DNA of 64,000 bases from Bacteroidota bacterium. Lineage in GTDB: Bacteria > Bacteroidota > Bacteroidia > Flavobacteriales > BACL11. The stretch covers positions 64,450-128,449 of the forward strand of contig JAOOLD010000001.1 of assembly GCA_028408365.1 (NCBI GenBank). Reading direction: 5' to 3'. Positions 9,163-40,874 of the stretch are shown one piece after another. Below the pieces are notes generated by a model. That model made no database searches. It worked only from the letters and a program-made list of their open reading frames with translations, and had not been told where the DNA came from. The translations under genes were made by a program, and so were the position numbers. Each line of letters opens with the position of its first letter. The stretch's first letter is position 1.

Positions 9163-10440
9163 ATGTTAAGACTACTGATATTATTTGTATTTGCAGTATG
9201 TATTGAAAGTCAATCTCAATGCTTAAGCACGGATTCGACATATAGTACAAACGTAAATTATACTAATGCCAAAGTAAATTGGGAAAAAGTTGATTCAGCA
9301 ATCTTTTACAGAGTAAGGTACAAAGATGTAAATGCAAGTACTTGGAGCTTTCAAAATAACATTGATTCTTCAGAAATAAATAAACTATTAATTGGACTAA
9401 CACCTCAAACGCAATATGTATGGCAAATAAAATCATATTGTGACAGTCTATCAAATACATCTTCACTATGGTCTACAACAGATAGTTTTTTTACTGAAAA
9501 TATAACACTAGCATACCCTACAAGCATTTACGCTAACAACATAACTTTTTACAATGCACAAGTCAACTGGACTGGAGCAAATAATACAGACCGCTTCAAA
9601 ATCAGATATAGAATATTCGGAACAACCACATGGAATTATCTTTCCAATATAGCAGGTTTTGTCTCAAGCACACAATTACCACAACTAAACCAACTAACTT
9701 TATATGAGTGGTCAATAATGTCATATTATGACACTACAAATCTGCTCGGTTCCCTTTGGTCACCGATTGATACATTTACCACAGCTCAGTTTATTCCGGC
9801 ACCTTTTTTTCCTGTAATAAACACTTCAATTAGCTCAAATTTATGTGGAGAAAAAGTAGATTTATTTGTATCAATCAGTCAATCAGCTAATCAACCGGAC
9901 ATAGAGCAATCGGTTGTTACAACGAACGAAGGACAATTTGATATTGGAGGCTTATCAATTGGTGATACAGTTGGTTATGCAGATGTTTACTTATCAAATT
10001 TATCAGCTACGGCTACATTAAAAGTGGGAATTGTTTTTGGCCAAAACTATGCTTTTATTAACGCTGTAGATAGTTTAGGGGGGTTAATTGGCTTTTTTTC
10101 AATTGAAAATGAAACAAATGGGGTTAAAATCACTTCCACATCCCCACCAGATGGCAATAATTACACAAGCGGTTTAACAACTGATATTACTTTTAATGAA
10201 ATTTTTATAAATCCAAACTTTTATACAAACCTTATAATAACTACAAATATAGAGTCTGAACTTCAAGACCAAATTATGATTAAGGACACAATACAAATAA
10301 ACTGTCCGTCATCAACTTTTGAAATAATTAATGATAAAAAAACAATAGGGTGTTTTAATTTACTAGGAAAAAATGTAAAAAGAAAAAAATACTCTTTTAG
10401 GTTTCTAAACAATCAAAAAAAAATAATAATTTATGAATAA
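9163..10440 (+). CDS. Secreted protein with two tandem FN3-like repeats
   Basis: It has a signal peptide (MLRLLILFVFAVCIESQSQ). Two repeats of about 95 aa share the pattern N-A-(K/Q)-V-N-W ... (F/Y)-(R/K)-(V/I)-R-Y-(K/R) ... T-W ... Y-x-W-x-I-x-S-Y ... S-L-W-S ... F-(F/T)-T. It overlaps galE by 8 nt. Confidence 0.65.
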   Translation: MLRLLILFVFAVCIESQSQCLSTDSTYSTNVNYTNAKVNWEKVDSAIFYRVRYKDVNASTWSFQNNIDSSEINKLLIGLTPQTQYVWQIKSYCDSLSNTSSLWSTTDSFFTENITLAYPTSIYANNITFYNAQVNWTGANNTDRFKIRYRIFGTTTWNYLSNIAGFVSSTQLPQLNQLTLYEWSIMSYYDTTNLLGSLWSPIDTFTTAQFIPAPFFPVINTSISSNLCGEKVDLFVSISQSANQPDIEQSVVTTNEGQFDIGGLSIGDTVGYADVYLSNLSATATLKVGIVFGQNYAFINAVDSLGGLIGFFSIENETNGVKITSTSPPDGNNYTSGLTTDITFNEIFINPNFYTNLIITTNIESELQDQIMIKDTIQINCPSSTFEIINDKKTIGCFNLLGKNVKRKKYSFRFLNNQKKIIIYE

Positions 10441-11425
10441 AGTAATTGTCACTGGTGGCGCAGGATATATAGGTTCACATACTTGTCTTAAACTAATAGA
10501 ATTAGGTTACGAACCTCTTATAATAGACAATCTTTCTAATACAAGTATTGAAAATATAAAGGGGGTTGAAAGCATTACAAATAAAAAATTAAATTTTTAT
10601 GAATTAGACTGCTGTAGTGCTCAAAAGCTTGACATGATCATAAAAAAAGAAAATGGTATAATTGGAGCTATTCATTTTGCAGCATATAAATCAGTTGAAG
10701 AATCAGTAAGAGAGCCTGAAAAATTCTTTTACAACAATTTAAAGTCACTTGAGTCTTTAATTGATGTTATGATTAATCAGAATTTAAATAATTTGATTTT
10801 TTCTTCTTCTTGCACTGTTTATGGTAGTCCAGATAGTTTACCTGTAGATGAAAATGCTCCTTTCAAAAAAGCAGAATCTCCGTATGGAGAAACAAAACAA
10901 CTCTGCGAAAAAATCATTGAAAAATCAACGCTATTTAGTGTTTGTCTTAGATATTTTAATCCAATCGGTTCGCACAATAGCGGATTAATTGGTGACAGAT
11001 CTGCTGATAAGCCAGCAAATTTAGTACCAATAATATGCGAAGTAGCCTATGGAAAAAGAGAGAAATTAATAATTAATGGCAATGATTATAATACAAAAGA
11101 TGGGACTTGTGTTAGAGATTATATTCATGTTGAGGATTTGGCACTAGCACACATAAACGCGCTTGAGTACTGTATCAAAAATAAGAGTAAGAGTATATTT
11201 AACATAGGTACTGGCCAAGGTTTATCAGTAGCTGAAACTGTTAGGATTTTTGAGGAATGTAATAATATTAAAGTAAATTTAGAGTATGGGCCCAGACGAA
11301 CTGGTGATGTCGCTGAAATATACTCTGACACTAAAAAATCTAGTAAATATCTAAAGTGGAAATCAGAAAAATCCATTTCAGATGCATTAAAAAGTGCTTG
11401 GAACTGGGAGCTAAATAAAACTTAA
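10433..11425 (+). CDS. galE: UDP-glucose (or UDP-GlcNAc) 4-epimerase
   Basis: 330 aa SDR with VIVTGGAGYIGSH, a catalytic S...Y-G-x-x-K block (SPYGETK) and RYFNPIG. Confidence 0.85.
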   Translation: MNKVIVTGGAGYIGSHTCLKLIELGYEPLIIDNLSNTSIENIKGVESITNKKLNFYELDCCSAQKLDMIIKKENGIIGAIHFAAYKSVEESVREPEKFFYNNLKSLESLIDVMINQNLNNLIFSSSCTVYGSPDSLPVDENAPFKKAESPYGETKQLCEKIIEKSTLFSVCLRYFNPIGSHNSGLIGDRSADKPANLVPIICEVAYGKREKLIINGNDYNTKDGTCVRDYIHVEDLALAHINALEYCIKNKSKSIFNIGTGQGLSVAETVRIFEECNNIKVNLEYGPRRTGDVAEIYSDTKKSSKYLKWKSEKSISDALKSAWNWELNKT

Positions 11426-14227: not shown

Positions 14228-15277
14228 ATGAAATCAATCTTAATAACTGGTGGCGCAGGGTTTATTGGATCACATGTAGCCAGACTATTTGTGAAAAAGT
14301 ATCCAGAATACAAAATTTATAATTTAGATAAACTCACATATGCTGGCAATCTTGAAAACATTTCAGATATAGAAGATTTCAAAAATTACAGGTTCATCAA
14401 AGGTGATATCTGTGACACTGACCTCTTATTAAGAGTCTTTAATAAATATAAATTTGACAGCATTATCCATTTAGCAGCAGAGTCACATGTTGATAGGTCT
14501 ATTACAAACCCTTTAGATTTTGTAAATACTAACGTGATTGGTACTGTTAATTTATTAAATCAGTTCAAAGAAACACATAAAAATAATTTTGATGGAAAAC
14601 TGTTTTATCATGTAAGTACAGATGAAGTTTATGGTTCACTTGGAGAAAGTGGATTTTTCACTGAAGAAACTTCATATGATCCAAATTCTCCATACTCAGC
14701 TTCAAAAGCCAGCTCTGATCATTTTGTAAGAGCATATGGAGAAACGTACGGACTTCCATATATAATATCAAATTGTTCAAATAATTATGGCCCACATCAA
14801 TTTCCAGAAAAACTTTTACCATTGTTTATTCATAATATAATAAATAGCCGTCCCTTACCTGTCTATGGTGATGGTACTTATACAAGGGACTGGCTTTATG
14901 TAAAAGATCACGCTTGCGCAATAGATATTTTATTTCACTCAAATAAAATAGGCCACACATACAATATTGGGGGCTTCAATGAGTGGAAAAATATAGATTT
15001 AGTTAAAGAGCTCTGTGCTCAGATGGACATAAAGCTGAAGAAAAAAGAAAGTAGTTCTGAAAGTCTTATTGAATTTGTGAAGGATCGTCCTGGTCATGAT
15101 TTAAGATATGCTATTGATGCTTCAAAAATTAAAAAAGATTTAAATTGGAAACCATCTGTTAATTTTAAAAAAGGATTAAGTTTGACTATAGATTGGTATT
15201 TAAATAATAAAAATTGGCTGAAGAATGTTACATCTGGTGAATACAGAAATTATTATAAAAAGCAATACTCAGCATGA
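14228..15277 (+). CDS. rfbB: dTDP-glucose 4,6-dehydratase
   Basis: 349 aa with ILITGGAGFIGSH, HVSTDEVYG, SPYSASKASSD and RPGHDLRYAID. Confidence 0.92.
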   Translation: MKSILITGGAGFIGSHVARLFVKKYPEYKIYNLDKLTYAGNLENISDIEDFKNYRFIKGDICDTDLLLRVFNKYKFDSIIHLAAESHVDRSITNPLDFVNTNVIGTVNLLNQFKETHKNNFDGKLFYHVSTDEVYGSLGESGFFTEETSYDPNSPYSASKASSDHFVRAYGETYGLPYIISNCSNNYGPHQFPEKLLPLFIHNIINSRPLPVYGDGTYTRDWLYVKDHACAIDILFHSNKIGHTYNIGGFNEWKNIDLVKELCAQMDIKLKKKESSSESLIEFVKDRPGHDLRYAIDASKIKKDLNWKPSVNFKKGLSLTIDWYLNNKNWLKNVTSGEYRNYYKKQYSA

Positions 15278-16365
15278 TGTTAGTTGAGTTCGTTAGCGAA
15301 ATATTAAAAGAAAATAGTTTAGCAATGATCTTAGCTGGAATTTTTGGATCATATTTAGTCACATCACAATCACTTCCGTTCATTATTTACTTCAGCAAAG
15401 TAAAGAATCTTACAGCTAAAGTTGATGAAAGAAGCTCTCATACAAGTAATATACCTAATATTGGCGGAATTGGAATTATTGCTGGAATCTACATAGTTAC
15501 GCTATCCTTATCATTTTTCATATTGAATTACGAAGAATCAAAATTTATAATCGCCCTATTTATTTCACTGTTAATTTTATTATTTGTCGGTTTCAAAGAT
15601 GACATGCTAGGCCTATCTGCAATAGCGAAATTGTTAACTGAAATTGGTACTGCAACTGCATTCATTCTTTTAACTGATTGTAGATTGGACAATTTTTATG
15701 GATTATTTGGTATTTATGAACTCAACTACTTTGTTTCAATAATTTTATCAATTTTTATATTTGTTGTTACTATAAATTCATATAACCTAATAGATGGAAT
15801 AGATGGACTAGCTGGCGGTTATGGGATAATTGCGATGATTGCATTTTTATTTCTAAGCTTATCGGCAAATAATTTGGTTGGTTTGATATTGTGTGCAACT
15901 ATAATTGGTAGTCTCGCTGGATTTTTAAAGTTCAATTTAAGCAATAGCAAAAGGAAAATTTTTATGGGAGATACTGGATCTTTAGTAGTTGGATTTTTGA
16001 TTTCTGTGACTGCACTTATTACCTTAAGTTCAAACAATGATTATAGCCAAATTTCTAATAATATACCCGTTTTAGTTCTCTCTATCTTGTCTTTTCCATA
16101 TGTTGATACATTAAGGGTAATGGTAATTAGGAGAAAAAATAAGCAGAAATTCTTTAAACCTGACAAAAACCACATTCACCATAAATTGATAAATGCAGGT
16201 AAAAGCCACGTTTCTTCCTCAATAATAATTTTAGCGGTATATTTATCCTCTATATTGTTTTGTATACTATTTCATGAGATAAATATCACCATTCATTTTA
16301 TAATATCACTTTTATATTCTTTACTTAGCTTGTTAACTTTAGTTTTCATATTTGACAAAAAATGA
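15274..16365 (+). CDS. Polyprenyl-phosphate HexNAc-1-phosphate transferase (MraY/WecA family, initiating transferase)
   Basis: 363 aa polytopic membrane protein with FKDDMLGLS and NLIDGIDGLAGG motifs, as in WecA/WbpL/MraY. ATGA overlap with rfbB. Confidence 0.85.
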   Translation: MMLVEFVSEILKENSLAMILAGIFGSYLVTSQSLPFIIYFSKVKNLTAKVDERSSHTSNIPNIGGIGIIAGIYIVTLSLSFFILNYEESKFIIALFISLLILLFVGFKDDMLGLSAIAKLLTEIGTATAFILLTDCRLDNFYGLFGIYELNYFVSIILSIFIFVVTINSYNLIDGIDGLAGGYGIIAMIAFLFLSLSANNLVGLILCATIIGSLAGFLKFNLSNSKRKIFMGDTGSLVVGFLISVTALITLSSNNDYSQISNNIPVLVLSILSFPYVDTLRVMVIRRKNKQKFFKPDKNHIHHKLINAGKSHVSSSIIILAVYLSSILFCILFHEINITIHFIISLLYSLLSLLTLVFIFDKK

Positions 16366-16411: not shown

Positions 16412-17698
16412 ATGATTTCTAAAAAACTAGTAATTGGTGTGGTTGGGCTTGGTTACGTAGGATTACCATTGTCCATTGAATTTGCAAAAAAGTATAAAGT
16501 TTATGGCTATGATATAAATAAAAAAAGAGTAAATCAGCTAAAAAGAAATATTGACGATTCTAATGAAGTAACAAAAAGTGAATTGTCTAAGGTAAATGTA
16601 TGTGAATTTAAAAAATCTAACAAAGGACTAGTATTAAGTGACACAATTTCAATTTTAAAAAAATGTAACTTTTTTATAGTAACAGTTCCAACTCCTATTG
16701 ACCACAATAACGAGCCAGATTTAAAACATTTGATAAATGTGTCTATAAAATTAGGTCAAATAATTAAAAAAAATGACATTGTGGTATATGAAAGTACCGT
16801 TTTTCCTGGAGCTTCAGAGGAAGTATGTTTGCCTCTGCTAGAAAAAGAAAGTAAAATGAAACTAAACAAAGACTTTTTTTTAGGATACTCACCTGAGAGG
16901 ATTAATATAGGTGATAAGACACATACAATTACGAATATCAAAAAAATTGTTTCTGGCTCAAACATCAAAACCGCAAAATTTATACAAAAAGTTTATGAGA
17001 CGATTATATCCGCGGGGACATACTTAGCGCCAAGTATAAAAGTTGCTGAAGCTGCAAAAGTTATCGAAAACACGCAGAGGTTCATTAATATTTCCTACAT
17101 GAATGAGTTAGCTAAGATTTTTAGTTTACTAAATATTGATACACATTCAGTGCTTGAGGCTGCATCAACTAAATGGAATTTCCATTCATACATTCCTGGT
17201 CTAATTGGCGGTCACTGTATTGGGATTGATCATTTTTATTTAACAAAAAAAGCAAGGGAGGCTGGTTATGAATCTAAAATTATTAACTCATGTTGGGAAG
17301 TGAATAAGTCTATGGGCAATTTTATTGCTGATGAAGTGATTAAAGAATTAACGAATAACAATGTTAAAATCAAAAATTCAAAAATATTAATACTGGGATT
17401 TACTTTCAAAGAAAACTCCTCAGACGTAAGAAATTCTAATATAATTAGTATTGTTAATAGATTTAACCATTTCCAGATTAACACCTCTATCTTTGACCCC
17501 TTAGCCAATAAAAGTGATGTTAAAGCAAAGTATGGCATTACTCTTTTAGAAAGTTTAAAATCTAAAAAATTTGATGCGGTTGTTTTAGCTGTTGCTCACA
17601 GACAATTTAAGAATATTAAAATTGAAAATTTAACAAGTCCAAGCGGAGTTATTTATGATGTAAAGGGATATTTAAATAAGTATACTAAAAGACTTTGA
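16412..17698 (+). CDS. UDP-N-acetylhexosamine 6-dehydrogenase (TviB/WbpO/Cap5O-type nucleotide-sugar dehydrogenase)
   Basis: 428 aa with VVGLGYVGLPLSIEFAK, YGYDIN..R...L and the catalytic-Cys block GLIGGHCIGID. Confidence 0.85.
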   Translation: MISKKLVIGVVGLGYVGLPLSIEFAKKYKVYGYDINKKRVNQLKRNIDDSNEVTKSELSKVNVCEFKKSNKGLVLSDTISILKKCNFFIVTVPTPIDHNNEPDLKHLINVSIKLGQIIKKNDIVVYESTVFPGASEEVCLPLLEKESKMKLNKDFFLGYSPERINIGDKTHTITNIKKIVSGSNIKTAKFIQKVYETIISAGTYLAPSIKVAEAAKVIENTQRFINISYMNELAKIFSLLNIDTHSVLEAASTKWNFHSYIPGLIGGHCIGIDHFYLTKKAREAGYESKIINSCWEVNKSMGNFIADEVIKELTNNNVKIKNSKILILGFTFKENSSDVRNSNIISIVNRFNHFQINTSIFDPLANKSDVKAKYGITLLESLKSKKFDAVVLAVAHRQFKNIKIENLTSPSGVIYDVKGYLNKYTKRL

Positions 17699-17855
17699 TT
17701 GCCAAAAGATTTTTTTAAATATAATAGTGTATAATTAAACGAATACCTTTTTTGTAAAACTTAATAAACAATCAAAAATCTTATTAATCTAAATTAATTT
17801 TAAAATTCATTTATTTAAAATAGATTTTAATATTTTTACAGAAATGGCAATCTAG

Positions 17856-17883
17856 TAGGGTTTAAATTAATGAAACCTATTTG
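17856..17883 (+). terminator. Possible intrinsic terminator hairpin after the 16412-17698 gene
   Basis: TAGGGTTT (17856-17863) pairs with AAACCTA (17873-17879), giving a 7-bp stem with one bulged G and a 9-nt loop, followed by TTTG. The short T-run makes it weak. Confidence 0.25.
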
Positions 17884-17897
17884 AATTAAATTAATTT

Positions 17898-17920: not shown

Positions 17921-17970
17921 TTAAAACAATTAATCATATTCAATTATGTGGTTGGCAAAAAATTAATTGA

Positions 17971-30910: not shown

Positions 30911-32054
30911 TTTTTTAGATTATCGAATTCCAATTTATGAAGAGATAAATAGGCTTTCTAATAACCAATTAATTGTCATATACAATGCAGAAGTAACTCC
31001 TTTAAGATGTCAAGAAGGTTTGAAGAAAATTTTAGGCTCTAGAGCAGTTGGTTTAAAAGGAGAAATTAGATTCGGTGGAAAAAAAATTGAAAATCAAACT
31101 TTTGCAAATAAAGGTGGTCTAAGAATTCCTTTACTACCTGGTTTAATAAATAAAATCAAAAAATCAGAACCAGATATTATATTATCAGATGGTTTTTTTC
31201 AATGGACATATGCAGCATTAATAAATAATGCAATATGGCAAACTCCGCATTTAATGCTTTATGAGAGAACCAAACATACAGAAAGAAACGTTTCTTTTCT
31301 TAGATATTATTTAAGACAAATTGCCTCAAAATTTATTACAGCAATTTCATGTAATGGAATTCAAACAAAAGAGTATTTACAAGAATTTGGTATTGCTGAA
31401 AAGAAATTATTTATTGGTAATATGGCCGCAGATAGTTCTGGACTTCAAAATGCTATTTCTAAAATTTCAAAAAATGAAATTTTAAAATTAAAGAAAAGCT
31501 TCAATTTAAAAGAAGATGTATTTTTATTTGTGGGGCAATTAATTCCAAGAAAAGGAGTGATTGAATTAATTAAAGCTTGGAAAGATTTTGAAAAAAATTT
31601 TTCAAACGCGTCTTTAGTTCTATTAGGAAGTGGAGAACAGTTAGAATTGGCAAGTGATTTGTTGAACAAAAATCGAATTAATAATGTGTGTTTACCAGGC
31701 AAAGTAGATTATTCAGAAGTTGCAACGTTTTATGCAGTCGCCGATATTTTTATTATTCCTACATTAGAGGATAATTGGTCATTGGTTGTTCCAGAAGCAA
31801 TGAGCTGTAGCCTTCCAATAATTTGTTCAAAATATAATGGCTGTTGGCCCGAATTGGTAAAAAAAGAAAATGGTTGGGTGTTTGATCCATTGGATACTAG
31901 TAATTTTAATCATACACTTAATTTAGCGTATAAAAACAAAGAGAAATGGAAAGAAATGGGTGAATCCTCTGCAAAAATAGTATCAGATTTTTCTACCGAA
32001 AAAATTGCAAATAAGATTGTTAACTCATGTAAAGAGATTATTTCAGATAAATAA
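30885..32054 (+). CDS. Glycosyltransferase family 4 (GT-B, retaining)
   Basis: 389 aa with FVGQLIPRKG and the EX7E-type block LEDNWSLVVPEAMSCSLPIICS. Confidence 0.85.
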   Translation: MKITWVTRSFLDYRIPIYEEINRLSNNQLIVIYNAEVTPLRCQEGLKKILGSRAVGLKGEIRFGGKKIENQTFANKGGLRIPLLPGLINKIKKSEPDIILSDGFFQWTYAALINNAIWQTPHLMLYERTKHTERNVSFLRYYLRQIASKFITAISCNGIQTKEYLQEFGIAEKKLFIGNMAADSSGLQNAISKISKNEILKLKKSFNLKEDVFLFVGQLIPRKGVIELIKAWKDFEKNFSNASLVLLGSGEQLELASDLLNKNRINNVCLPGKVDYSEVATFYAVADIFIIPTLEDNWSLVVPEAMSCSLPIICSKYNGCWPELVKKENGWVFDPLDTSNFNHTLNLAYKNKEKWKEMGESSAKIVSDFSTEKIANKIVNSCKEIISDK

Positions 32055-32055
32055 A

Positions 32056-33384
32056 ATGAATATTACTGATTACATTTTCTTAAAGCGTTATTCCCTTGCA
32101 AAAAATGGAGCTTTGGATGCATATAAAACAGCTATTTTAAATCAAAGAATGGATGAAAGTGCACTCAACGAGTTAGTTTGGGAAAAAACAAAAAAATTAG
32201 TTTCTCACGCTTATGCGAATGTTAGTTGGTATAAAGACAAATTTGATGAATTAGGTTTACATCCATTTGACATAACTAAGCCTGAGTATTTTGGTCAAAT
32301 CCCAATCTTAAAACGTCATGAAATTATTAATAATTTCGACAAATTTATATCGAAAGGTGTTACATCTAAAAATCTTAAATTTATTACAACTGGCGGTTCC
32401 TCTGGTAAACCATTGAAAATTGGGGTAAGTAAAAGAAGGATTAGAGAAATTCAAAAATGGCAAATGTTTGATTGGTGGAATGTTCCACTAAATGCAAATA
32501 TGGCAAGTATATATAGAGGTGTTCCAGTAAATGGATTAAAGAAGTTAGCATTAAGTTTTATAAATTGGCCGCAAAAAATTATTAGACTAGATGCGGCAAA
32601 AATTACTTCACATAATATAAGGCAATTTATTCATCAATATAGAAAAGTTCGTCCAAAATTAATTCACGGTTATGTTGGTGCTCTCGATGCTTTAGCAGAT
32701 TATATTTTAGAAAATAATATCAAGTTTGACTTTAAACCAAATTCAATTTGGTGTACCGCTGCTCCAATTTCAGTTGTACAAGAAAATAAGATTTCAAAGG
32801 CTTTCAACGCACCTGTTTGTGATCAATACGGTTGTAGCGAGTTATATTTTGTTTCAGCAGAATGTTCACATAAAAGAGGATTGCATATTTTTTCAGATTC
32901 TGTTAAAGTTGAGATTGTTGATTATAGAGGACAAGCAGTTCGTAATGATCTCTATGGGAATATTATTCTTACAAATTTAGATGAATATGCATTCCCATTA
33001 ATTAGATATGAAAATGGGGATAGAGGAAGAATTTTAGATGACAAATGTTCATGTGGAATGACTTTACCACTTATGGATAAAGTTAAAGGAAGAATTTCTG
33101 ACAATATTAATCTCCCAAACAGTGTAGTTTTATCTGGTGAATACCTAACAACAATATTTGACAATCATACAGATTATGTGAAGCAGTTTCAGATAATTCA
33201 AAAGAAAGATTTAAGTCTAAAGATAAAGGTTAAGCTATCTAACAGTAATTATACAGATTTAATAAAAAAATTTTTAGAACGTGAATTAGGTGAAAAAATT
33301 AACAATCAAGTTGGTTATACTATCGATTTTGTTGATGAAATATTTTCAGATAAAGGAAAACTTAGATTTATAATTAAAGAATGA
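32056..33384 (+). CDS. CapK / phenylacetate-CoA-ligase-like adenylate-forming enzyme
   Basis: 442 aa from ATG 32056; the track's upstream extension overlaps the previous gene. It has the AMP-binding P-loop TTGGSSGKPLK, a later ENGDRG block and a C-terminal GKLRFI. Confidence 0.75.
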   Translation: MNITDYIFLKRYSLAKNGALDAYKTAILNQRMDESALNELVWEKTKKLVSHAYANVSWYKDKFDELGLHPFDITKPEYFGQIPILKRHEIINNFDKFISKGVTSKNLKFITTGGSSGKPLKIGVSKRRIREIQKWQMFDWWNVPLNANMASIYRGVPVNGLKKLALSFINWPQKIIRLDAAKITSHNIRQFIHQYRKVRPKLIHGYVGALDALADYILENNIKFDFKPNSIWCTAAPISVVQENKISKAFNAPVCDQYGCSELYFVSAECSHKRGLHIFSDSVKVEIVDYRGQAVRNDLYGNIILTNLDEYAFPLIRYENGDRGRILDDKCSCGMTLPLMDKVKGRISDNINLPNSVVLSGEYLTTIFDNHTDYVKQFQIIQKKDLSLKIKVKLSNSNYTDLIKKFLERELGEKINNQVGYTIDFVDEIFSDKGKLRFIIKE

Positions 33385-34568
33385 CCATGAAAATCCTTTT
33401 TGTACATAATAATTACGCCAGCAATAACAGCGGTGAGGAACATGCCTCTCAAGCGTTAGCAACTTTATTAATTGCAAATGGTCATAAAGTTGATTGGTAT
33501 AGAAAGAGCTCAGACATTATAAAAGATTCTGTATGGATGAAGATGAAAGCTTTTATCTTCGGAATATACAATCCTTACGCTGTTAAAGATTTGATGGCAA
33601 AAATAAATCAGTTTTCGCCAGACATTATTCAATGTCAAAATTTATATCCTTTTATTTCTCCAGCTATTATTAAACCAATTAAAAAGTTAAACATTCCTTT
33701 AATAATGAGGTGTCCAAATTATAGATTATTTTGCCCAACAGGCCTTCATCTCGATAGCAGTAATAAAATTTGTGAAAGTTGTTTAACTAAATTAAAAGAG
33801 TTTAACTGTGTTATGAAAAATTGTGAAAAAAATTGGTTTAAATCAATCGGCTATGCACTTCGAAATTTAGTTGCAAGAAAATATTGGAATATTACAAAAT
33901 TGTTCGATGCCTATATTGTTCAAACAGAATTTCAAAAGCAAAAGTTCGTCAAAAATGGTATTTCAAAAGAAAAATTATTTGTTGTTCCAGGGCTAACTCC
34001 TGAAATTAAAGCTATTGACAACAGAAATATTGCTTCAAACTATGTTAGTTTCATAGGCAGAGTCAGTGAAGAAAAAGGAATAGAAGAATTTATTTATGCT
34101 GCGAATAAATTACAAGACATATCATTTAAAGTAGTCGGAGCATACTCAGATTCTTTTATAAACCTAAAACAAAAATCATCTCGCAATGTTGAGTGGACTG
34201 GTTTTATGAGTGGTAAAAATTTAGATGAAATTTTTGTAAAATCTAGAATTATTGTTGTTCCAGGCAAGTGGTATGAAGGGTTTCCAAATGTAATTACTCG
34301 TGCCATGAGACACGGCAAAGCAATTATAACTTCTGATTTAGGAGCAATGTCTTCAATTATTGATCATAAAAAAAATGGACTCTTGGTTAGTGCTGGAGAC
34401 GGAGAATTGTTACATTCAGCTATAAAAAAACTATTTTATGATAAAAGTTTATGCGCTAAATACGGAGAAAATGCAAAGAAAAAAGCATCTGATTATTATT
34501 CAAACAAAATAATTTACGAAAAACTTTTAGATTCTTACAACTACATACTAAATAAAAATGTTATTTAA
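33381..34568 (+). CDS. Glycosyltransferase family 4
   Basis: 395 aa with MKILFVHNNY, FIGRVSEEKG and WYEGFPNVITRAMRHGKAIITSDLG. The start may be ATG 33387. Confidence 0.8.
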   Translation: MTMKILFVHNNYASNNSGEEHASQALATLLIANGHKVDWYRKSSDIIKDSVWMKMKAFIFGIYNPYAVKDLMAKINQFSPDIIQCQNLYPFISPAIIKPIKKLNIPLIMRCPNYRLFCPTGLHLDSSNKICESCLTKLKEFNCVMKNCEKNWFKSIGYALRNLVARKYWNITKLFDAYIVQTEFQKQKFVKNGISKEKLFVVPGLTPEIKAIDNRNIASNYVSFIGRVSEEKGIEEFIYAANKLQDISFKVVGAYSDSFINLKQKSSRNVEWTGFMSGKNLDEIFVKSRIIVVPGKWYEGFPNVITRAMRHGKAIITSDLGAMSSIIDHKKNGLLVSAGDGELLHSAIKKLFYDKSLCAKYGENAKKKASDYYSNKIIYEKLLDSYNYILNKNVI

Positions 34569-35991
34569 CTCTTGGGAATATCTTTTTTTATTTTTAGTAA
34601 CAACAATACTATACTTTAATATATCTCTGAAGTATAGAACATTTTTGCTGCTAATTAGTTCATATATATTTTATATATCTTGGCGCTTAGATTTTGCTCT
34701 TTTAATGCTAGCTGTTACAATGGTAAATTTTTTTGGCGGCATAAAAATCAATGCCTCAAGATCAAAGAAATCAAAGAAATACTGGTTAGCCTTAACAATA
34801 TTTTTATCTCTTATACCACTAATTTATTTTAAGTATTTTAATTTTTTGATTGAGAATATTAATTTCATCATTCCGTTTTTTGATAACAATTTGCAATTAC
34901 CTTATATCGAAATTATCTTACCTGTAGGTATTTCCTTTTTCACATTTCAAGCACTAAGTTACTCTTTGGATGTATATTATGGAAAAACTAATGTTGAGTA
35001 TAATTTCATAAATTTCAGCGGATTTGTAGCTTTTTTTCCTCAACTTGTTGCCGGCCCCATTGAACGCTCTTCAAATTTACTTTCTCAATTTAGAAACAAA
35101 CATTTGTTCCTGAAAGAAAATTTTTTAATTGGAGCAAAATTATTTATATGGGGTTTATTTAAAAAAGTTGTAATTGCGGATCGTCTAGCAATTTATGTTA
35201 ATAATATTTATGATAACCCAGAACTATTTAACTCTGCTACTTTAGCTGTAGCAACAATGTTTTTTGCTTTTCAAATATATTGTGATTTTAGTGGTTATTC
35301 TGATATGGCAATTGGTTCTGCTAAAATTTTAGGGTTTAATCTAAGACAAAACTTCAATTTACCATACCTCGCAAATTCTATTGGAGACTTTTGGAAACGT
35401 TGGCACATATCATTATCGTCTTGGTTTGGAGACTACCTTTATATTCCTCTTGGCGGTAATAGAGTTCGTTACTACAGGTGGGTTATTAATATTTTTCTTG
35501 TTTTTTTACTAAGTGGTTTTTGGCATGGTGCTAGCTGGACTTTTATAATATGGGGCTCATTGCATGCTTTTTACTATTTAGTTGAAAGCTGGGGTGATAA
35601 GTTTCTTAATTTGATTGATTTCAATTTTATTAAAAGGTATTGGGGTTATAAAGTATTTAAGATTTTAACTGTTTTCGTTTTAGTTTGTTTTGCATGGGTT
35701 TTTTTTCGTGCAAATTCAATCACAGATGCCTTCTTTATAATTGATGAAATTTTATCTTTTAAAAAAGGTGATTTATATATTGGCAGTTCAGCTGTTACAT
35801 TTATATTGTCAATATTTTTAATCTTTCTCTTATTAATAGTACAAATAATGCAGTATCTCAAAATTGCATCTATGTACTTTTATAAATCTAAAGCTCCTGC
35901 ATCAATTCAATTTTTATGGTATTTATTAATATGCGTGGCGATATCAACTTTGAGTGTCAGTTCAAATGCCTTTATTTACTTTCAATTTTAA
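34558..35991 (+). CDS. MBOAT-family membrane O-acyltransferase (AlgI/DltB-like)
   Basis: 477 aa with MLFNSWEYL, FWKRWHISLSSWFGDYLYIPLGGNR and the catalytic-His block FLLSGFWHGASW. Confidence 0.9.
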   Translation: MLFNSWEYLFLFLVTTILYFNISLKYRTFLLLISSYIFYISWRLDFALLMLAVTMVNFFGGIKINASRSKKSKKYWLALTIFLSLIPLIYFKYFNFLIENINFIIPFFDNNLQLPYIEIILPVGISFFTFQALSYSLDVYYGKTNVEYNFINFSGFVAFFPQLVAGPIERSSNLLSQFRNKHLFLKENFLIGAKLFIWGLFKKVVIADRLAIYVNNIYDNPELFNSATLAVATMFFAFQIYCDFSGYSDMAIGSAKILGFNLRQNFNLPYLANSIGDFWKRWHISLSSWFGDYLYIPLGGNRVRYYRWVINIFLVFLLSGFWHGASWTFIIWGSLHAFYYLVESWGDKFLNLIDFNFIKRYWGYKVFKILTVFVLVCFAWVFFRANSITDAFFIIDEILSFKKGDLYIGSSAVTFILSIFLIFLLLIVQIMQYLKIASMYFYKSKAPASIQFLWYLLICVAISTLSVSSNAFIYFQF

Positions 35992-35994: not shown

Positions 35995-36930
35995 ATGGCC
36001 CTAAAAAAAATTTTAAAGTTTAAAATCATAAACACATTTACAATAGTTATTTCATTTATAGTCTCATTTTTCATTTTAGATTTAGGCGTAAATTCATTTC
36101 TAAGAAAAGGGTTGAAAAAATACTATGGTATTGAAGATAATTCTGAAATAGCACTTATTGGTCACTCTCATATAATGTTGGGTTTAGATAAAGAAAGTAT
36201 GGAGAAAAAACTAAACATAAAAGTTGCAAAATATACAAGCGAAGGTGTTGATATATTAAATAGAAAAGTAATGATTGACTACTTACTTGAAAAAAATGAC
36301 AGCATAAGATTATTAATTTATGGGGTTGATGCCTGGTCATTTAGTGGGGAGGGTTTAAGTGCAAATTCTCAAGTATTGTTTTATCCTTTTTTAGATAATG
36401 TTAATATTGACCACTATTTGAGAGAATGTGTCCCTTTCAAAGATTATTTGACTAGAAAAATAATAAAAACTACACGCTATAACGAAGGCCTTATATCTTC
36501 TTCTTTTAGAGGATATTTACGAAACTGGGATAATATGAAATCTGGAACTGTAAATTTAAAAAAAGTAAAAGAGCAAATTGCCAAAAATAAGTACAGGAAA
36601 ATCAATAATAATCCACTTTATATTGAGACCCTAACGCAAACAATTGAAACTCTATCATTAAACAAGATAGAAATTATTTTGTTTTATATTCCAACTTTGC
36701 ATCTTATAAACCAAGTGGAAAATAAAAAGTTTAAAAAAAATATAGATATTTTTGAGCAAATTGAGTCAGATTATGATAATGTGAAATTCATTAATTTTAC
36801 AGATGCATATTCACATCGCTATGAATTATTTTACGACCCCATACATTTAAACTCAGTTGGACAAAAAGTAGTTACAGATTCATTAATTAAAATTCTACAA
36901 AAAAATTACTACAATGATATTGGGATATGA
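35995..36930 (+). CDS. Membrane-anchored SGNH-like partner of the MBOAT (AlgJ/AlgX/DltD functional analogue)
   Basis: 311 aa with an N-terminal anchor helix. The block-I-like motif is ALIGHSHIMLG (GHS instead of GDS) and the block-V DxxH motif is YDPIHLN. Its position right after the MBOAT gene supports the call. Confidence 0.5.
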   Translation: MALKKILKFKIINTFTIVISFIVSFFILDLGVNSFLRKGLKKYYGIEDNSEIALIGHSHIMLGLDKESMEKKLNIKVAKYTSEGVDILNRKVMIDYLLEKNDSIRLLIYGVDAWSFSGEGLSANSQVLFYPFLDNVNIDHYLRECVPFKDYLTRKIIKTTRYNEGLISSSFRGYLRNWDNMKSGTVNLKKVKEQIAKNKYRKINNNPLYIETLTQTIETLSLNKIEIILFYIPTLHLINQVENKKFKKNIDIFEQIESDYDNVKFINFTDAYSHRYELFYDPIHLNSVGQKVVTDSLIKILQKNYYNDIGI

Positions 36931-37633
36931 CATCTTTTCAAATAAGCTTGAGGACATTAATCTTGAGAAAAAACTTATTATTAATACGATAAATCCTCAT
37001 AGTTATTGTATTGCAAAAAAGGATGAGGTTTTTCAACAAGCTTTAAAATCATCTGATATTTTATTGCCTGACGGTATTGGAATTGTGTGGGCTGCAAAAT
37101 TTTTAAGAAACTTCAAATTAAAAAAAATAGCTGGCTTTGATCTTTTTATTTTTTTAATGAATGACATTAATAAAAAAAATGGTTCTGTTTACTTTCTTGG
37201 ATCGACTGAAAATACACTGAAACTAATTAGTGAAAAAATAGTAGTAGAATATCCTAAAATTAATTTTAAAAAATATTCTCCGCCTTTTAAAGACGAATTT
37301 TCACATGAAGAATCGCTTGAAATTTGTAATAGAATTAATGACTTTAGTGCCGATATTTTATTTGTTGGAATGACAGCTCCCAAACAAGAAAAATGGATTC
37401 ACAAATACAAAAATGAAATAAATGTCAAAAAAATATGTGCCGTAGGTGCTGTTTTTGATTTTTATGCAGGTAATATAAAGCGTTCATCTAATTTTTGGAT
37501 TAGTATTGGTTTAGAGTGGTTGCCGAGATTTTTGCGTGAACCGAAAAGACTATACAAAAGAACTTTTTTTTCAACTCCCAAATTTATTTTAGAGGTTTTA
37601 TTTCACAAATTATTTGGTAAAGGCATCTTATGA
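36914..37633 (+). CDS. WecB/TagA/CpsF-family glycosyltransferase (GT26)
   Basis: 239 aa with INTINPHSY, DILLPDGIGIVWA, GMTAPKQEKW and GAVFDFYAG. These are typical GT26 blocks. Confidence 0.8.
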   Translation: MILGYDIFSNKLEDINLEKKLIINTINPHSYCIAKKDEVFQQALKSSDILLPDGIGIVWAAKFLRNFKLKKIAGFDLFIFLMNDINKKNGSVYFLGSTENTLKLISEKIVVEYPKINFKKYSPPFKDEFSHEESLEICNRINDFSADILFVGMTAPKQEKWIHKYKNEINVKKICAVGAVFDFYAGNIKRSSNFWISIGLEWLPRFLREPKRLYKRTFFSTPKFILEVLFHKLFGKGIL

Positions 37634-37728: not shown

Positions 37729-37736
37729 TATTTTTG
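37729..37736 (+). promoter_or_regulatory. -7 promoter box TATTTTTG, 4 nt upstream of wza ATG 37741
   Basis: Exact consensus match. The spacer is GTAT, followed by ATG. It lies in the 107-bp gap before wza-wzc. Confidence 0.45.
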
Positions 37737-38508: not shown

Positions 38509-38510
38509 AC

Positions 38511-40874
38511 ATGAACAGCCAACAAGAAAATTTTGATTTGAATCAAAGTACAGATGATGGTTTAGATTTGAAAAAGTCGTTTTTCAAATACTTCTATTAT
38601 TGGAAGTTTTTTGTTGTAAGTTGTTTACTTACGATGATTGCTGCATATTCATATTTAAGATACACTCCTAATGTTTACAGCGTATCTGCTAAAATTAAGA
38701 TTATTGATGAAAAAGATTACTCACTTGAACTTCCTTCAGCTTCCAATTTATTAAATAAATCTAAAATCAATTTAGAAAACAGTGTTGAAATTTTATCATC
38801 ATATCCAATACTAAGCCAAGTAGTTAAAAATAAAAATCTAAATATCTCTGTTTATGAAGCAGGTAATGTAATCAAATCATTGACAGTAAATTACCCATTT
38901 GAAATAATACCAACTTTACCTATTGATAGTTTATTATACTACAAATTCAAAATTGATATCACTGAGCAAGGATTTGAGATTATTGACTTTCAAAAAGATG
39001 AAAAAAAATATAATTTTAACGGAATCTCAACAAAAAAATATAAACATAACCTTCCTTTTGAAATCGTAAATTTTAATAAAGAGCTTTACGTTGCTGATAA
39101 AGGATATTACTTTAGCTTTCTTCCTACTTATGATGTGGTACAATCATTGAAAAAATCAATTCAAGTTTCTCAAGTTGGTAATGAAAGTGATATTATTCAA
39201 TTAGAATTAAAATCAACAAGTTCAGAATATTCAAAGATTGTTATAAATGAAGTCATAAAAGTTTTTAATAATGACGGAATAAGTGACCGTCGTTTAGTAC
39301 ATAAAAGAACTATAGATTTTGTTAATGAGAGATACGCATTTCTTTCTTTAGAGCTAGACTCGATTGAAGTGTCAAAACAGCAGTATAAAGTTAACAATGA
39401 TTTGGTTGATTTTGAAATTAACTCTAATATTTCATTAGAAAAAAGTTCTGCATCTAAGGATAATATATTTTCAACTGAGAACCAAATTTTTCTTACCAAT
39501 CTATTAATTAATACTCTAGGTGACAGTCAACTTAAATTACTGCCGTCCAATTTAGGTATTGAAAACAGTGAGATAAATCTACTAATATCAAATTATAATC
39601 AATTTATTCTAGATAGAAAAAAGTTAGTTATTAGTGCTGGATCAAATAATCCTTCCTTAGCATATATTGATGATTTAATTTATGAAGGGAAAAAGAATAT
39701 AATTTTTTCTTTACAAAACCATCTTTCACAACTTAAAAATTTAAAGAATAAACTAAACTTTAAAGTTGAAGAGTATGATAGTCAAGTATCAAATTTACCT
39801 AAAAAAGAAAAAATACTTAGAGCTATAGAGCGTAATCAGCAAATTAAAGAAGCTCTTTATTTATTTCTACTACAAAAAAGAGAAGAGGCAGAAGTTAGTT
39901 ATGCTGTAACTGAGCCTAGCATTAAGGTTGTAGAGTATGCAATGATAGATAGTTCTCCAGTATCCCCAAGAAGAAATACAATTTATATTGTTGCGTTTAT
40001 TATGGGGCTTCTGACACCTTTTTTTACAATTTATTTCTCATTTCTATTGAACAGAAAAATATTTTCTAAAAATCAATTTCAAGAGCTTGGGATTCCTATT
40101 CCCTTAATTGGAGAAGTTCCTGAGATCACAGATCAGCCAAATAAAATAATTTTGTCGTCCGAAGAAAGATCACCACTTGCAGAGTCATTTAGAGTATTGT
40201 GCTCTAATTTGAAGTTTTTTACTAAAAAAACTAATGATTGTCAAGTTATAATGGTAACCTCAACAATTAAAGGTGAAGGTAAAACATTTTGTGCCACAAA
40301 TATTGCATTTACTAAAGCTTCACTTGGTAAAAAAGTTCTTCTCATTGGGGCTGATTTGCATAACCCTCAGATTCATTCTTATCTTGATTTAGAAAAAAAT
40401 ATTAATGGACTAGTTAATTATTTAGTTGATGACAGTTTTGATTGGAAGAAGTCATTATTGAGACCTAATTCATCTTTAAATTGTGACGTTATGCTATGCG
40501 GGCAAATTCCTCCTAATCCTGCACAGCTGCTAAATAATAGTAGTTTTAAAAAATTAATTGATGAGGCAAAAAACTCTTATGACTTTATAGTTATAGATAC
40601 ACCACCTTGCTTATTGGTTTCAGACACATTAAGTATTAGTTATTTATCTGATTTGCTTTTATTTGTTGTACGCTGTAATCATACGAAAATTGAAGTCCTT
40701 GATTTCTTAAAGGACATTCATAAAAAAGGAGTTATTAAAGATAATTCTATGATAATTCTTAATGGAATAGGTGCTAACAATAAATATGGTTACGGTTACG
40801 CTTACAATTATAACTATAGTTATAAATATGGATATAATTATGGATATGGGTATGAATACAACTCTTCAGAATGA
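38511..40874 (+). CDS. wzc: Polysaccharide co-polymerase / tyrosine autokinase (Wzc, PCP-2a)
   Basis: 787 aa with a Wzz-like N-terminal domain carrying two TM helices. It has the Walker A motif TSTIKGEGKT and VIDTPP (Walker B-like). The C-terminal Tyr cluster is YGYGYAYNYNYSYKYGYNYGYGYEY. Confidence 0.88.
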   Translation: MNSQQENFDLNQSTDDGLDLKKSFFKYFYYWKFFVVSCLLTMIAAYSYLRYTPNVYSVSAKIKIIDEKDYSLELPSASNLLNKSKINLENSVEILSSYPILSQVVKNKNLNISVYEAGNVIKSLTVNYPFEIIPTLPIDSLLYYKFKIDITEQGFEIIDFQKDEKKYNFNGISTKKYKHNLPFEIVNFNKELYVADKGYYFSFLPTYDVVQSLKKSIQVSQVGNESDIIQLELKSTSSEYSKIVINEVIKVFNNDGISDRRLVHKRTIDFVNERYAFLSLELDSIEVSKQQYKVNNDLVDFEINSNISLEKSSASKDNIFSTENQIFLTNLLINTLGDSQLKLLPSNLGIENSEINLLISNYNQFILDRKKLVISAGSNNPSLAYIDDLIYEGKKNIIFSLQNHLSQLKNLKNKLNFKVEEYDSQVSNLPKKEKILRAIERNQQIKEALYLFLLQKREEAEVSYAVTEPSIKVVEYAMIDSSPVSPRRNTIYIVAFIMGLLTPFFTIYFSFLLNRKIFSKNQFQELGIPIPLIGEVPEITDQPNKIILSSEERSPLAESFRVLCSNLKFFTKKTNDCQVIMVTSTIKGEGKTFCATNIAFTKASLGKKVLLIGADLHNPQIHSYLDLEKNINGLVNYLVDDSFDWKKSLLRPNSSLNCDVMLCGQIPPNPAQLLNNSSFKKLIDEAKNSYDFIVIDTPPCLLVSDTLSISYLSDLLLFVVRCNHTKIEVLDFLKDIHKKGVIKDNSMIILNGIGANNKYGYGYAYNYNYSYKYGYNYGYGYEYNSSE

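Follow-up and report, generated by a model that had tools for sequence, protein, structure and literature searches.

A putative Wzx/Wzy-dependent polysaccharide locus with a lineage-conserved supply block and a shared assembly cassette in an uncultured Flavobacteriales bacterium

On the forward strand of contig JAOOLD010000001.1, from assembly GCA_028408365.1 of an uncultured member of the Flavobacteriales, 27 genes running from galE (10433) to wzc (40874) form a locus that probably serves the synthesis and export of an acidic surface polysaccharide, and this locus is the subject of the present work. The stretch analysed, 64,000 nucleotides long and AT-rich (about 29% GC), is referred to as the window, and all positions are counted within it. 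The gene map comes from a longest-open-reading-frame (ORF) analysis of the window, with the gene calls of the NCBI assembly used for checking start codons, and families were assigned by searches with Pfam, NCBIfam (at its curated cutoffs) and the sequences of the PDB. The first-pass annotation, made from the letters of the sequence, had described 27 co-oriented genes with six ATGA overlaps of 4 bp and just four gaps above 40 bp, which is also what the longest-ORF map returns, with overlaps at 15274, 20379, 21326, 27774, 29678 and 33381 and gaps of 42, 46, 272 and 107 bp. Some junctions depend on the start codon that is chosen: two apparent overlaps of -68 and -50 bp, at the beginnings of the formyltransferase and CapK-like genes, are start-codon artefacts, and with the NCBI start of the second GT4 gene (33387) the ATGA overlaps become five, not six. 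The co-oriented run is wider than the locus, from 2587 to 48715 on the same strand, and the flanking genes have an identical orientation in relatives without the locus, and for these two reasons the single-strandedness is partly a property of the chromosomal neighbourhood.

The earlier annotation had also predicted a complete set of assembly and export proteins, a broad palette of precursor enzymes and several decorating activities. When the proteins were examined one by one with hidden Markov models (Pfam/NCBIfam), all the functional classes were recovered and nearly every gene call was reproduced, also with the PDB searches (Table 1). The assembly and export set comprises an initiating polyprenyl-phosphate N-acetylhexosamine (HexNAc)-1-phosphate transferase (PNPT), Wzx, a Wzy-like protein, two GT2, two GT4 and one GT26 glycosyltransferases, Wza and Wzc. 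On the precursor side there are GalE, a TviB-like dehydrogenase, Ugd together with a UDP-glucuronate (UDP-GlcA) 4-epimerase-like short-chain dehydrogenase/reductase (SDR), Gmd/Fcl, a lone RfbB and a CapE/FnlA-type enzyme, followed by the genes for amination (two of the DegT family), an N-formyltransferase, an MBOAT protein, a PaaK/CapK-like adenylating enzyme and CysC/D/N. The predicted absences hold as well: in the 64-kb window, no ORF of 150 aa or more was recognised as a regulator or a UpxY/NusG-like protein, and none has a Pfam match to a low-molecular-weight protein tyrosine phosphatase (LMW-PTP) of the Wzb type or to a PHP phosphatase of the CpsB type. Rfam finds only the tRNA.

Table 1. 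Features of the polysaccharide locus and its immediate edges, in window coordinates
Feature	Position	Strand	Evidence and remarks
FN3-like secreted protein, 425 aa, flank gene	9163..10440	+	weak fn3 matches; overlaps galE start by 8 bp
galE, UDP-glucose (or UDP-HexNAc) 4-epimerase	10433..11425	+	TIGR01179 356.9 bits (cutoff 262)
cysC, APS/PAPS synthesis	11468-12073	+	above NCBIfam cutoff
cysD, APS/PAPS synthesis	12054-12959	+	above NCBIfam cutoff
cysN, APS/PAPS synthesis	12959-14221	+	above NCBIfam cutoff
rfbB/rmlB, dTDP-glucose 4,6-dehydratase	14228..15277	+	TIGR01181 449.8 bits (cutoff 365)
Initiator, WecA/MraY-superfamily polyprenyl-phosphate HexNAc-1-P transferase	15274..16365	+	PF00953 E 4e-33
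TviB/WbpO-like UDP-HexNAc 6-dehydrogenase	16412..17698	+	NF011729 447.8 bits (cutoff 592); TIGR03026 357 bits, above cutoff
Intergenic gap	17699-17970		272 bp, the only long gap; 8-bp-stem hairpin at 17898-17920
ugd	17971-19365	+	three UDPG_MGDP_dh domains; TIGR03026 351.7 bits
UDP-glucuronate 4-epimerase-like SDR	19366-20382	+	PDB 5u4q 377 bits; 6zl6/6zla 159 bits
fcl	20379-21329	+	NF047922 473 bits, just below cutoff 500
gmd	21326-22417	+	TIGR01472 543.6 bits (cutoff 415); GDP-L-fucose branch with fcl
CapE/FnlA-type UDP-GlcNAc 4,6-dehydratase/5-epimerase	22410..23432	+	CapE 3vvb 453.7 bits; FnlA 4j2o 452.5 bits
DegT/DnrJ/EryC1 sugar aminotransferase 1	23435-24520	+	PF01041 E 2.5e-81
DegT/DnrJ/EryC1 sugar aminotransferase 2	24521-25594	+	PF01041 E 3.2e-55
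Sugar N-formyltransferase	25587..26369	+	PF00551; likely start TTG 25587 (longest ORF GTG 25527)
Wzx flippase	26362..27777	+	PF01943 E 1.5e-21; PF13440; multi-pass membrane protein
GT2, first	27774-28682	+	PF00535 E 1e-7
GT2, second	28704-29681	+	PF00535 E 1e-34; 55% identity to collinear Winogradskyella gene
Wzy-type polymerase	29678..30910	+	PF04932 Wzy_C E 8e-12, 45.6 bits (cutoff 31.7); about 11 hydrophobic segments
GT4 a, first gene of the conserved core	30885..32054	+	PF00534
CapK/PaaK-like adenylate-forming enzyme, 442 aa, proposed uronic-acid amide ligase	32056..33384	+	PF27533 CapK_C
GT4 b	33381..34568	+	PF00534
MBOAT (DltB/AlgI-like) membrane O-acyltransferase	34558..35991	+	PF03062 E 3e-29
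SGNH-fold protein, membrane-anchored, DltD-like, 311 aa	35995..36930	+	MBOAT partner
GT26 (WecG/TagA/CpsF family), likely second-sugar transferase	36914..37633	+	PF03808 E 2e-51
Wza-type outer-membrane export protein, short form, 255 aa	37741..38508	+	PF02563 and SLBB (PF10531); TAnnTTTG at 37729
Wzc-type PCP-2a/BY-kinase	38511..40874	+	Wzz, GNVR and AAA_31 domains
tRNA-Arg(TCG), right edge of the slot	40987..41061	-	flank; porZ follows at 41127

The genes on both sides of the locus are conserved in related marine Flavobacteriales, with glyRS-folB-gltX-ORF1090-ybeY-mnmG-methyltransferase-FN3 on the left and tRNA-Arg(TCG)-porZ-recO-TonB receptor-sortilin-like protein of the type IX secretion system (T9SS)-DUF4837-SLT on the right. 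The tRNA-Arg(TCG) stands at the right edge in all the relatives checked, and it lies directly upstream of porZ also in those that lack the locus. Between the FN3 gene and this tRNA, three TARA contigs with identical flanks (L085-87) have nothing, a 478-kb contig (L084) has two unrelated genes, and both the window and the metagenome-assembled genome (MAG) GCA_002716345.1 (L083) have a polysaccharide locus. Because the flanks are conserved while the content of the slot is either empty, unrelated or a polysaccharide locus, the 30-kb region is best described as a flexible, replaceable island in a defined slot. Neither an integrase family match in the window nor an att-like direct repeat (no shared word of at least 11 nt between the two junction regions) marks the island, which makes site-specific integration less likely than an exchange by homologous recombination in the conserved flanks.

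Upstream of the island, the product of the FN3 gene, which always stands between the methyltransferase and tRNA-Arg/porZ, has a signal or anchor sequence as well as two FN3-like repeats that are weak. Its many homologs, about 45% identical across the lineage, occur almost only in MAGs and TARA contigs of marine Flavobacteriales. A role as T9SS cargo was considered for this protein and discarded, since Pfam and NCBIfam find no C-terminal sorting domain in it and the positive control in the window scores 53 bits. Farther out in the flanks, between gltX and ybeY, a 1090-aa ORF (2587-5859) has no Pfam match even at E<=1 and shares 92% identity with its counterpart in L083 and 38% with that in L084. 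On the other side, the 871-aa protein with sortilin/Vps10 repeats (46100-48715) has a type A sorting domain of the T9SS, matches the F510_1955-family glycosylhydrolase model weakly, and is 62% identical in L084, which is without the island.

The first reading of this DNA as one unitary 30-kb locus has to be modified. Compared with GCA_002716345.1, galE is 82% and cysC/cysD/cysN are 83-92% identical, and the whole block from galE to rfbB falls within 82-92%, while the initiator is only 60%, ugd 69% and fcl 53% identical and the dehydrogenase, at 32%, is a different enzyme. By this comparison the 5' supply block galE-cysCDN-rfbB is conserved in the lineage, with divergence starting at the initiator and the remaining genes exchanged.

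The downstream half has its own relatives in other bacteria. Winogradskyella sp. HB-48 (CP187934), a cultured strain, shows a collinear GT2-Wzy-GT4-CapK-GT4-MBOAT-SGNH-GT26 series followed by wza-wzc, at 50-62% identity; Seonamhaeicola sp. MEBiC1930 (CP104270) has GT4b-MBOAT-SGNH-GT26 at 51-64% identity and lacks CapK; and marine metagenome contigs carry GT2-GT4-CapK (81%) and, further along, GT4-MBOAT-SGNH-GT26-Wza. The core GT4-CapK-GT4-GT26 recurs in Balneolaceae YR4-1 (52-59% identity) and in Sulfurovum riftiae (42-56%), and Marinoscillum has CapK-GT4-SDR-GT26, so that a PaaK/CapK-like gene adjoins the GT4 and GT26 core in the window and in four other taxa. Judging from these alignments, the assembly cassette seems to be shared horizontally, beyond the marine Flavobacteriales of the Bacteroidota and into other phyla. 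The combination of genes had been thought to look undescribed, which no longer applies to its assembly half. The search for syntenic loci with solved products was successful in one part, as the collinear Winogradskyella and the partial Seonamhaeicola loci were found, whereas the literature searched yielded no product structure for either strain, nor one for the source organism. In S. riftiae (LNKT01000071, 9613-16000) the cassette ends beside toxin-antitoxin or abortive-infection-type genes (AbiEii, HigB, PemK, PhdYeFM and ParE), an arrangement that is consistent with a mobile or variable region.

Among the precursor genes, rfbB is without partners, as no rmlA, rmlC or rmlD occurs in the 64-kb window, and the GDP-L-fucose branch is likewise without manB/manC there. 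The initiator is a multi-pass membrane protein scoring 132 bits against the WecA model, below its cutoff of 326. The dehydrogenase that follows gives 448 bits with the TviB model versus 170-186 bits with the WecC models; searched against genome contigs, its relatives, mostly from Pedobacter, reach at most 54% identity, and no syntenic loci were recovered. For the SDR behind ugd, the PDB matches 6zl6/6zla presumably represent the UDP-GlcA 4-epimerase of Bacillus cereus, our sole check being a paper in which 6ZLA is mentioned together with that enzyme. The CapE-type dehydratase obtains 507 bits against TIGR04130, under its cutoff of 730, its PDB match 3vvb is CapE of Staphylococcus aureus, and no CapF/CapG (FnlB/FnlC) partner is present. 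The best PDB matches of the two aminotransferases are 4-aminotransferases of the nucleoside-diphosphate-4-keto-6-deoxyhexose type (4zwv/4xau) and CalS13, at 245 and 129 bits respectively, and those of the N-formyltransferase (4xcz, 5uij, 5vys and WlaRD, E 4e-16 or weaker) are all sugar N-formyltransferases; N-formylation as a decoration is thereby supported at the level of the enzyme family.

Taken together, these enzymes make UDP-Gal/UDP-GalNAc, the uronic acid of HexNAc (HexNAcA) as UDP-HexNAcA, UDP-GlcA with UDP-galacturonate (UDP-GalA), GDP-L-Fuc, dTDP-4-amino-4,6-dideoxyhexose and UDP-4-amino-4,6-dideoxy-L-HexNAc possible donors. The last of these would be made by the CapE-type enzyme followed by transamination, which would replace the reduction and epimerisation by CapF/CapG, and one of the two amines would then be N-formylated. 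With six transferases the repeat should not exceed about six residues, close to the number of end-product donors.

Several of the assembly proteins are best known through their counterparts. The Wzy-type protein is 50% identical to the collinear Winogradskyella gene product. GT4a shares 59% identity with its homolog in Balneolaceae, 53% in Winogradskyella and 42% in Sulfurovum, always directly upstream of CapK or MBOAT; GT4b is 48-62% identical to the genes directly downstream of CapK in four other taxa, and GT26 is 52-56% identical among the cassette-bearing loci. Wza is short in comparison with that of Escherichia coli (379 aa), as are its homologs in other loci of the Flavobacteriaceae type (254-259 aa), and a hydrophobic segment occupies residues 234-254 at its C-terminus. 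Wzc contains the Walker A motif GEGKT, a DTPP motif and 14 Tyr within its last ~35 residues.

For the CapK-like protein of the cassette the likeliest start, as in the NCBI call, is the ATG at 32056. It matches PaaK (4r1l) at E 4e-22 and belongs to a very large family, with 1,435 clusters at 50% identity among the homologs found at E<=1e-30. A plausible function is suggested by the Vibrio polysaccharide (VPS) of V. cholerae, where the PaaK/CapK-like protein VpsH is genetically required for adding glycine to the HexNAcA of a lipid-linked disaccharide (PMC13463779). The acidic sugar is attached there by VpsK, a GT26 enzyme, and VpsI and VpsD, both GT4 enzymes, extend it (PMC13463779, 2026). The operon order vpsH-I-J-K parallels CapK-GT4-(two genes)-GT26 in the window, and by this analogy, which draws on gene families, gene order and the cited roles, amidation of a uronic acid by the CapK-like enzyme is plausible. 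Papers on "CapK" of the S. aureus capsule were set aside, since the name there denotes something else, which leaves the VPS paper as the only informative one.

A second decorating module is formed by the MBOAT and SGNH genes, which are adjacent in four other loci as well. The best NCBIfam model for the MBOAT protein is DltB, at 147.8 bits and thus below the cutoff of 375. In its partner, G56-H57-S58, N124 and D281-x-x-H284 are invariant across 44 homologs, and an AlphaFold2 model (mean pLDDT 93.4) returns DltD and SGNH esterases as the top Foldseek matches, the match to DltD (E 3e-5, TM 0.45) being a resemblance at the level of the fold only. O-acylation by the MBOAT protein and its conserved SGNH partner is in this way supported by family, motif and predicted fold. 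The 311-aa protein had also been a candidate for a missing sulfotransferase, which its SGNH fold rules out. The spaces between the genes of the locus hold no free ORF of 40 aa or more as a candidate for a carrier protein (DltC), and the adenylating enzyme is of the PaaK/CapK type and not DltA.

From the cysC-cysD-cysN genes, a supply of 3'-phosphoadenosine 5'-phosphosulfate (PAPS), made through adenosine 5'-phosphosulfate (APS), and hence a sulfated product had been proposed. This expectation was not borne out: no protein of the 64-kb window matches a sulfotransferase family, with the unassigned proteins checked down to E<=1, and a Sulfotransfer_1 protein from Balneolaceae finds no homolog in the window by tblastn (best E 2.4). 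In Vibrio sp. KMM 8419, PAPS and sulfotransferase genes together have been named the hallmark of a sulfated capsular polysaccharide (CPS) (PMC11641403). Sulfation is thus unsupported here, and we do not predict it with any confidence. Two loci found along the way bear on the same subject. A Mucilaginibacter MAG (DASRTD010000216, 4361-15181) has the order rpoC, TviB-like gene, CysQ-like gene of the inositol-phosphatase family, cysC, cysD, cysN, wza, wzc and wzx, and in the 15.6 kb covered no sulfotransferase was seen. The locus of Balneolaceae YR4-1 (JAALLT010000002, 3328-4128 and 14335-15117) holds the Sulfotransfer_1 gene, a formyltransferase and a polysaccharide deacetylase beside the GT4-CapK-GT4-GT26 core, which suggests that in one other phylum at least the product of the cassette may carry both sulfate and formyl groups.

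As for transcription signals, the -7 motif of Bacteroidota, TAnnTTTG, occurs 24 times on the forward strand between 6000 and 43400, mostly inside genes, which gives the motif small statistical weight. Only three copies are intergenic (9151-9158, 37729-37736 and 41115-41122), and each begins exactly 12 nt upstream of a start codon, namely those of the FN3 gene (9163), wza (37741) and porZ (41127); the copy at 9151 is the only promoter-like motif of this kind upstream of the locus. This placement suggests very short leaders, or none, and separate transcription starts for the FN3 gene with the locus, for wza-wzc and for porZ. No such motif is found in the long gap between the dehydrogenase gene and ugd, whose hairpin may be a partial terminator or a processing site. 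Scans for sigma-70 promoters (82 versus 78, and 105 versus 105) and for intrinsic terminators (9 versus 6, and 5 versus 4.9) performed at chance and were not used.

Two sister assemblies reached through exact protein matches, GCA_028411005.1 and GCA_028407245.1 (labelled Bacteroidota bacterium, locus tag prefix OA405_), are 99.86-99.99% identical to the window at the DNA level and differ from it by single-base changes in homopolymer length that would shift reading frames. Near 35260, in the MBOAT gene, T6 of the window stands against T7 of GCA_028411005.1, which has no call for this gene; near 25007 the second aminotransferase gene has A7 in the window and A6 in a sister assembly; and near 4227 the 1090-aa ORF shows A7 versus A6 and is split into 551 and 540 aa in GCA_028407245.1. 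Such single-base indels could be either assembly errors or real on/off variation.

Considering gene content, gene order and the comparison with relatives, we think it likely that the region is one Wzx/Wzy-dependent, Wza/Wzc-exported locus for an acidic heteropolysaccharide (a capsule or exopolysaccharide, EPS), lodged in a replaceable slot between FN3 and tRNA-Arg-porZ and built in three layers. The first would be the conserved 5' supply of galE, cysC/D/N and rfbB; the second an exchangeable nucleotide-sugar block with the TviB-like gene, ugd and the 4-epimerase, fcl/gmd, the CapE-type enzyme, two 4-aminotransferase-like genes and the N-formyltransferase; and the third the horizontally shared GT2-GT2-Wzy-GT4-CapK-GT4-MBOAT-SGNH-GT26 series, followed by wza-wzc. 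The families are those returned by the searches, and from them we infer the following order of reactions. The WecA-like PNPT would load HexNAc-phosphate onto undecaprenyl phosphate, and GT26 would add an acidic second sugar of the HexNAcA type, supplied by the TviB-like dehydrogenase, given that the characterised GT26 relatives (WecG, TarA and VpsK) add a second and often acidic sugar. On this lipid-linked intermediate, and in analogy with VpsH, the CapK-like enzyme may adenylate the carboxylate of HexNAcA and amidate it with an amino acid or an amine. Through the two GT4 and two GT2 enzymes the chain would grow by as many as four residues, with GalA/GlcA, L-Fuc, Gal and 4-amino-4,6-dideoxy sugars (N-formylated or free) as the candidates, and the repeat unit, of six residues at most, would be flipped by Wzx and polymerised by Wzy. 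At the outer face of the inner membrane the MBOAT/SGNH pair would O-acylate the glycan, which Wzc and Wza would finally export.

Some points weigh against this interpretation. With rmlA, manB/manC and a Wzc phosphatase absent from the window, the completeness of the pathway rests on unlinked genes, although these absences are unremarkable, since rml is split in Flavobacterium psychrophilum, the phosphatase is unlinked in Winogradskyella and Seonamhaeicola, and UpxY is a feature of Bacteroides. The PF04932 domain is shared with WaaL ligases and cannot separate Wzy from WaaL, even if the position among glycosyltransferase genes favours Wzy. Finally, the 272-bp gap with its hairpin and the conserved 5' block mean that galE-cysCDN-rfbB-wecA-tviB may serve several glycans, which opens the possible, if doubtful, explanation of a composite region, where galE, cysC/D/N and rfbB (perhaps with wecA and the TviB-like gene) would be a general supply operon for several glycans and also a source of APS/PAPS, used to assimilate sulfur or to sulfate unrelated acceptors. 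The polymer-specific locus would then span only ~17971-40874, and the palette of precursors in the first-pass annotation would be overcounted. This division would suit the step in identity to L083 (82-92% from galE to rfbB and 60% or less further downstream, ugd apart), the coincidence with the sole long gap, the window being without a sulfotransferase, the place of the PNPT initiator in Winogradskyella and Seonamhaeicola, which is at the 3' end beside wza and not in a 5' block, and the rml genes of F. psychrophilum, likewise split between the O-polysaccharide locus and another site (PMC6519341). It is countered by the relatives without a polysaccharide locus, which lack the 5' block in the slot too, so that the block travels with the island. 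The genes of the block also lie close against the other genes of the locus, no gap exceeding 46 bp, the long gap is free of the TAnnTTTG motif, cysCDN also heads the wza-wzc-wzx locus of the Mucilaginibacter MAG, and the downstream cassette needs both an initiator and the TviB-like dehydrogenase.

Other explanations concern the product more than the extent of the locus. That the polymer is sulfated, with CysC/D/N feeding PAPS to a sulfotransferase elsewhere in the genome or to an unrecognised family in the locus, we regard as rather unlikely. An unlinked enzyme is conceivable because cysCDN lie inside the island, as a set that is 42 bp from galE and 6 bp from rfbB, and because the Mucilaginibacter MAG has cysQ-cysC-cysD-cysN directly upstream of wza-wzc-wzx; the Sulfotransfer_1 gene in a Balneolaceae locus with the same cassette and the extra cysNDC in the CPS cluster of Vibrio sp. 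KMM 8419, whose CPS is proven to be sulfated (PMC11641403), point in the same direction. The pairing described as a hallmark in that study (PMC11641403) is nevertheless incomplete in the window, both searches for the missing partner came back empty, and each protein of the locus is confidently assigned to something else. CysDNC, moreover, also work in assimilatory sulfate reduction through PAPS reductase. A lipopolysaccharide (LPS) O-antigen, or an anionic LPS glycan that anchors T9SS cargo, seems highly unlikely as the product: O-antigen loci typically have a Wzy_C protein and a WecA-type initiator, and porZ, the "anionic LPS delivery protein" of NCBIfam, lies 250 bp downstream, but the locus ends in wza-wzc, which are capsule/EPS export genes, neither waaL nor wzz can be identified separately, and porZ keeps its neighbours, the tRNA-Arg and the FN3 gene, also where relatives lack the locus, which makes the adjacency inherited synteny. 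A functional link of the locus to porZ, T9SS or anionic LPS was rejected on the same grounds. We would give hardly any credence to a carrier-less Dlt-like pathway, in which CapK would work with the DltB-like MBOAT and the DltD-like SGNH protein to attach an amino acid, or another carboxylic acid, to the exported glycan as an ester, in spite of the best NCBIfam match of the MBOAT protein (DltB), the top structural matches of its partner (DltD), an ANL-superfamily adenylating enzyme two genes upstream and a contiguous MBOAT-SGNH-CapK in Sulfurovum. The locus has no carrier-protein ORF, the MBOAT protein stays at 148 bits for a cutoff of 375, and the modules occur independently, as Seonamhaeicola has MBOAT-SGNH without CapK, and Balneolaceae and Marinoscillum have CapK without MBOAT-SGNH; the locus is therefore not a Dlt system. 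The conserved neighbours of CapK are, besides, two GT4 genes, and the VpsH cluster acetylates through a soluble acetyltransferase. Returning to the capsule/EPS locus that we prefer, its boldest extension would take the GT4-CapK-GT4-GT26 core, with or without MBOAT/SGNH, as a laterally spread family of VPS-like glycans whose lipid-linked HexNAc-uronic acid is amidated with an amino acid, and which here would be N-formylated, O-acylated and sulfated as well, by an unlinked or unrecognised sulfotransferase with PAPS made in the locus; as a whole, this is distinctly unlikely.

In abundant marine bacteria, the regions that vary between strains are mainly surface-glycan islands, which shape both the susceptibility to phages and grazers and the chemistry of dissolved and particulate polysaccharide in the sea. 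The general understanding of such loci is unchanged by these results. What they add is an insertion slot with defined borders (FN3 gene / tRNA-Arg-porZ) for a Flavobacteriales lineage that is widespread and uncultured, an example of an exchangeable part behind a conserved supply block, and a cross-phylum cassette for whose CapK-like enzyme the VPS work of 2026 now offers a plausible function. The variable slot, this CapK cassette and the orphan PAPS genes are what seems worth keeping, and with Winogradskyella sp. HB-48, which carries the cassette and is in culture, the amidation hypothesis becomes testable.

Among known systems, the VPS cluster of V. cholerae shares with the window the Wzx/Wzy dependence predicted for the latter, the export of the Wza/Wzc type, GT4 enzymes, which in VPS extend the chain, a gene order of CapK-like, GT4, one or two inserted genes and GT26, and O-acylation, which is O-acetylation in VPS and a prediction for the window (PMC13463779). 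The two differ in the initiator, a Glc-1-P phosphoglycosyltransferase (VpsL) in VPS and a WecA-type PNPT in the window, and in the origin of the acid sugar, which in VPS comes from WecB/WecC-type enzymes and the epimerase VpsJ, whereas the window has a TviB-type dehydrogenase and neither WecB (no Epimerase_2 match in the window) nor VpsJ. VPS is acetylated by soluble acetyltransferases and not by an MBOAT/SGNH pair, and the window has extra fucose, uronate-epimerase, amino-dideoxy and formyl branches. The pair itself resembles DltB/DltD, AlgI/AlgJ-AlgX and PatA/PatB, where a polytopic MBOAT protein is likewise followed by a membrane-anchored SGNH protein with a Ser/His/Asp-type motif, but unlike the Dlt and Alg pairs it has neither DltA/DltC equivalents nor a carbohydrate-binding module of the AlgF/AlgX type, and its MBOAT protein falls short of the equivalog cutoff for DltB.

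The E. coli group 1 capsule and colanic acid, an acidic polymer of hexasaccharide repeats with fucose, uronic acid and acyl decorations, follow the same Wzx/Wzy and Wza-Wzc logic, with a Wzc BY-kinase bearing a C-terminal Tyr cluster. The window departs from them in having no Wzb, a short Wza (255 aa), a PNPT initiator instead of WcaJ/WbaP, and a promoter context of the Bacteroidota type without a JUMPstart/RfaH-type element. Closer in phylogeny, the O-polysaccharide locus of F. psychrophilum, with 19 ORFs for a trisaccharide of solved structure (PMC6519341), is also a Wzx/Wzy locus of the Flavobacteriia with amino-dideoxy HexNAc sugars and an incomplete rml set, rmlC and rmlD being encoded elsewhere, and its wzy and R-group gene modules are exchangeable (PMC6519341); unlike the window, it has a complete FnlABC route to L-FucNAc, and the description cited names no uronic acid genes, CapK or MBOAT (PMC6519341). 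The Winogradskyella and Seonamhaeicola loci are as devoid of a linked Wzc phosphatase as the window, and differ in the PNPT initiator between GT26 and wza (in Winogradskyella together with WecB) and in the upstream precursor genes.

The sulfated CPS cluster of Vibrio sp. KMM 8419 resembles the window in its extra cysC/cysN/cysD within a polysaccharide cluster (PMC11641403), and is set apart by its three sulfotransferases and its ABC (Kps) transporter. The UpxY/UpxZ signature of Bacteroides-type CPS loci is missing too, with no NusG/KOW match and with mnmG, the methyltransferase and the FN3 protein as the upstream genes. The locus is, in consequence, neither a Bacteroides-type CPS locus nor demonstrably a sulfated-CPS cluster, and is best placed, by its gene families, in the well-known Wzx/Wzy and Wza/Wzc class, without the linked phosphatase. 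That its particular combination of genes has no described product is normal for the serotype-type islands of uncultured bacteria, and half of that combination is a recurrent cassette.

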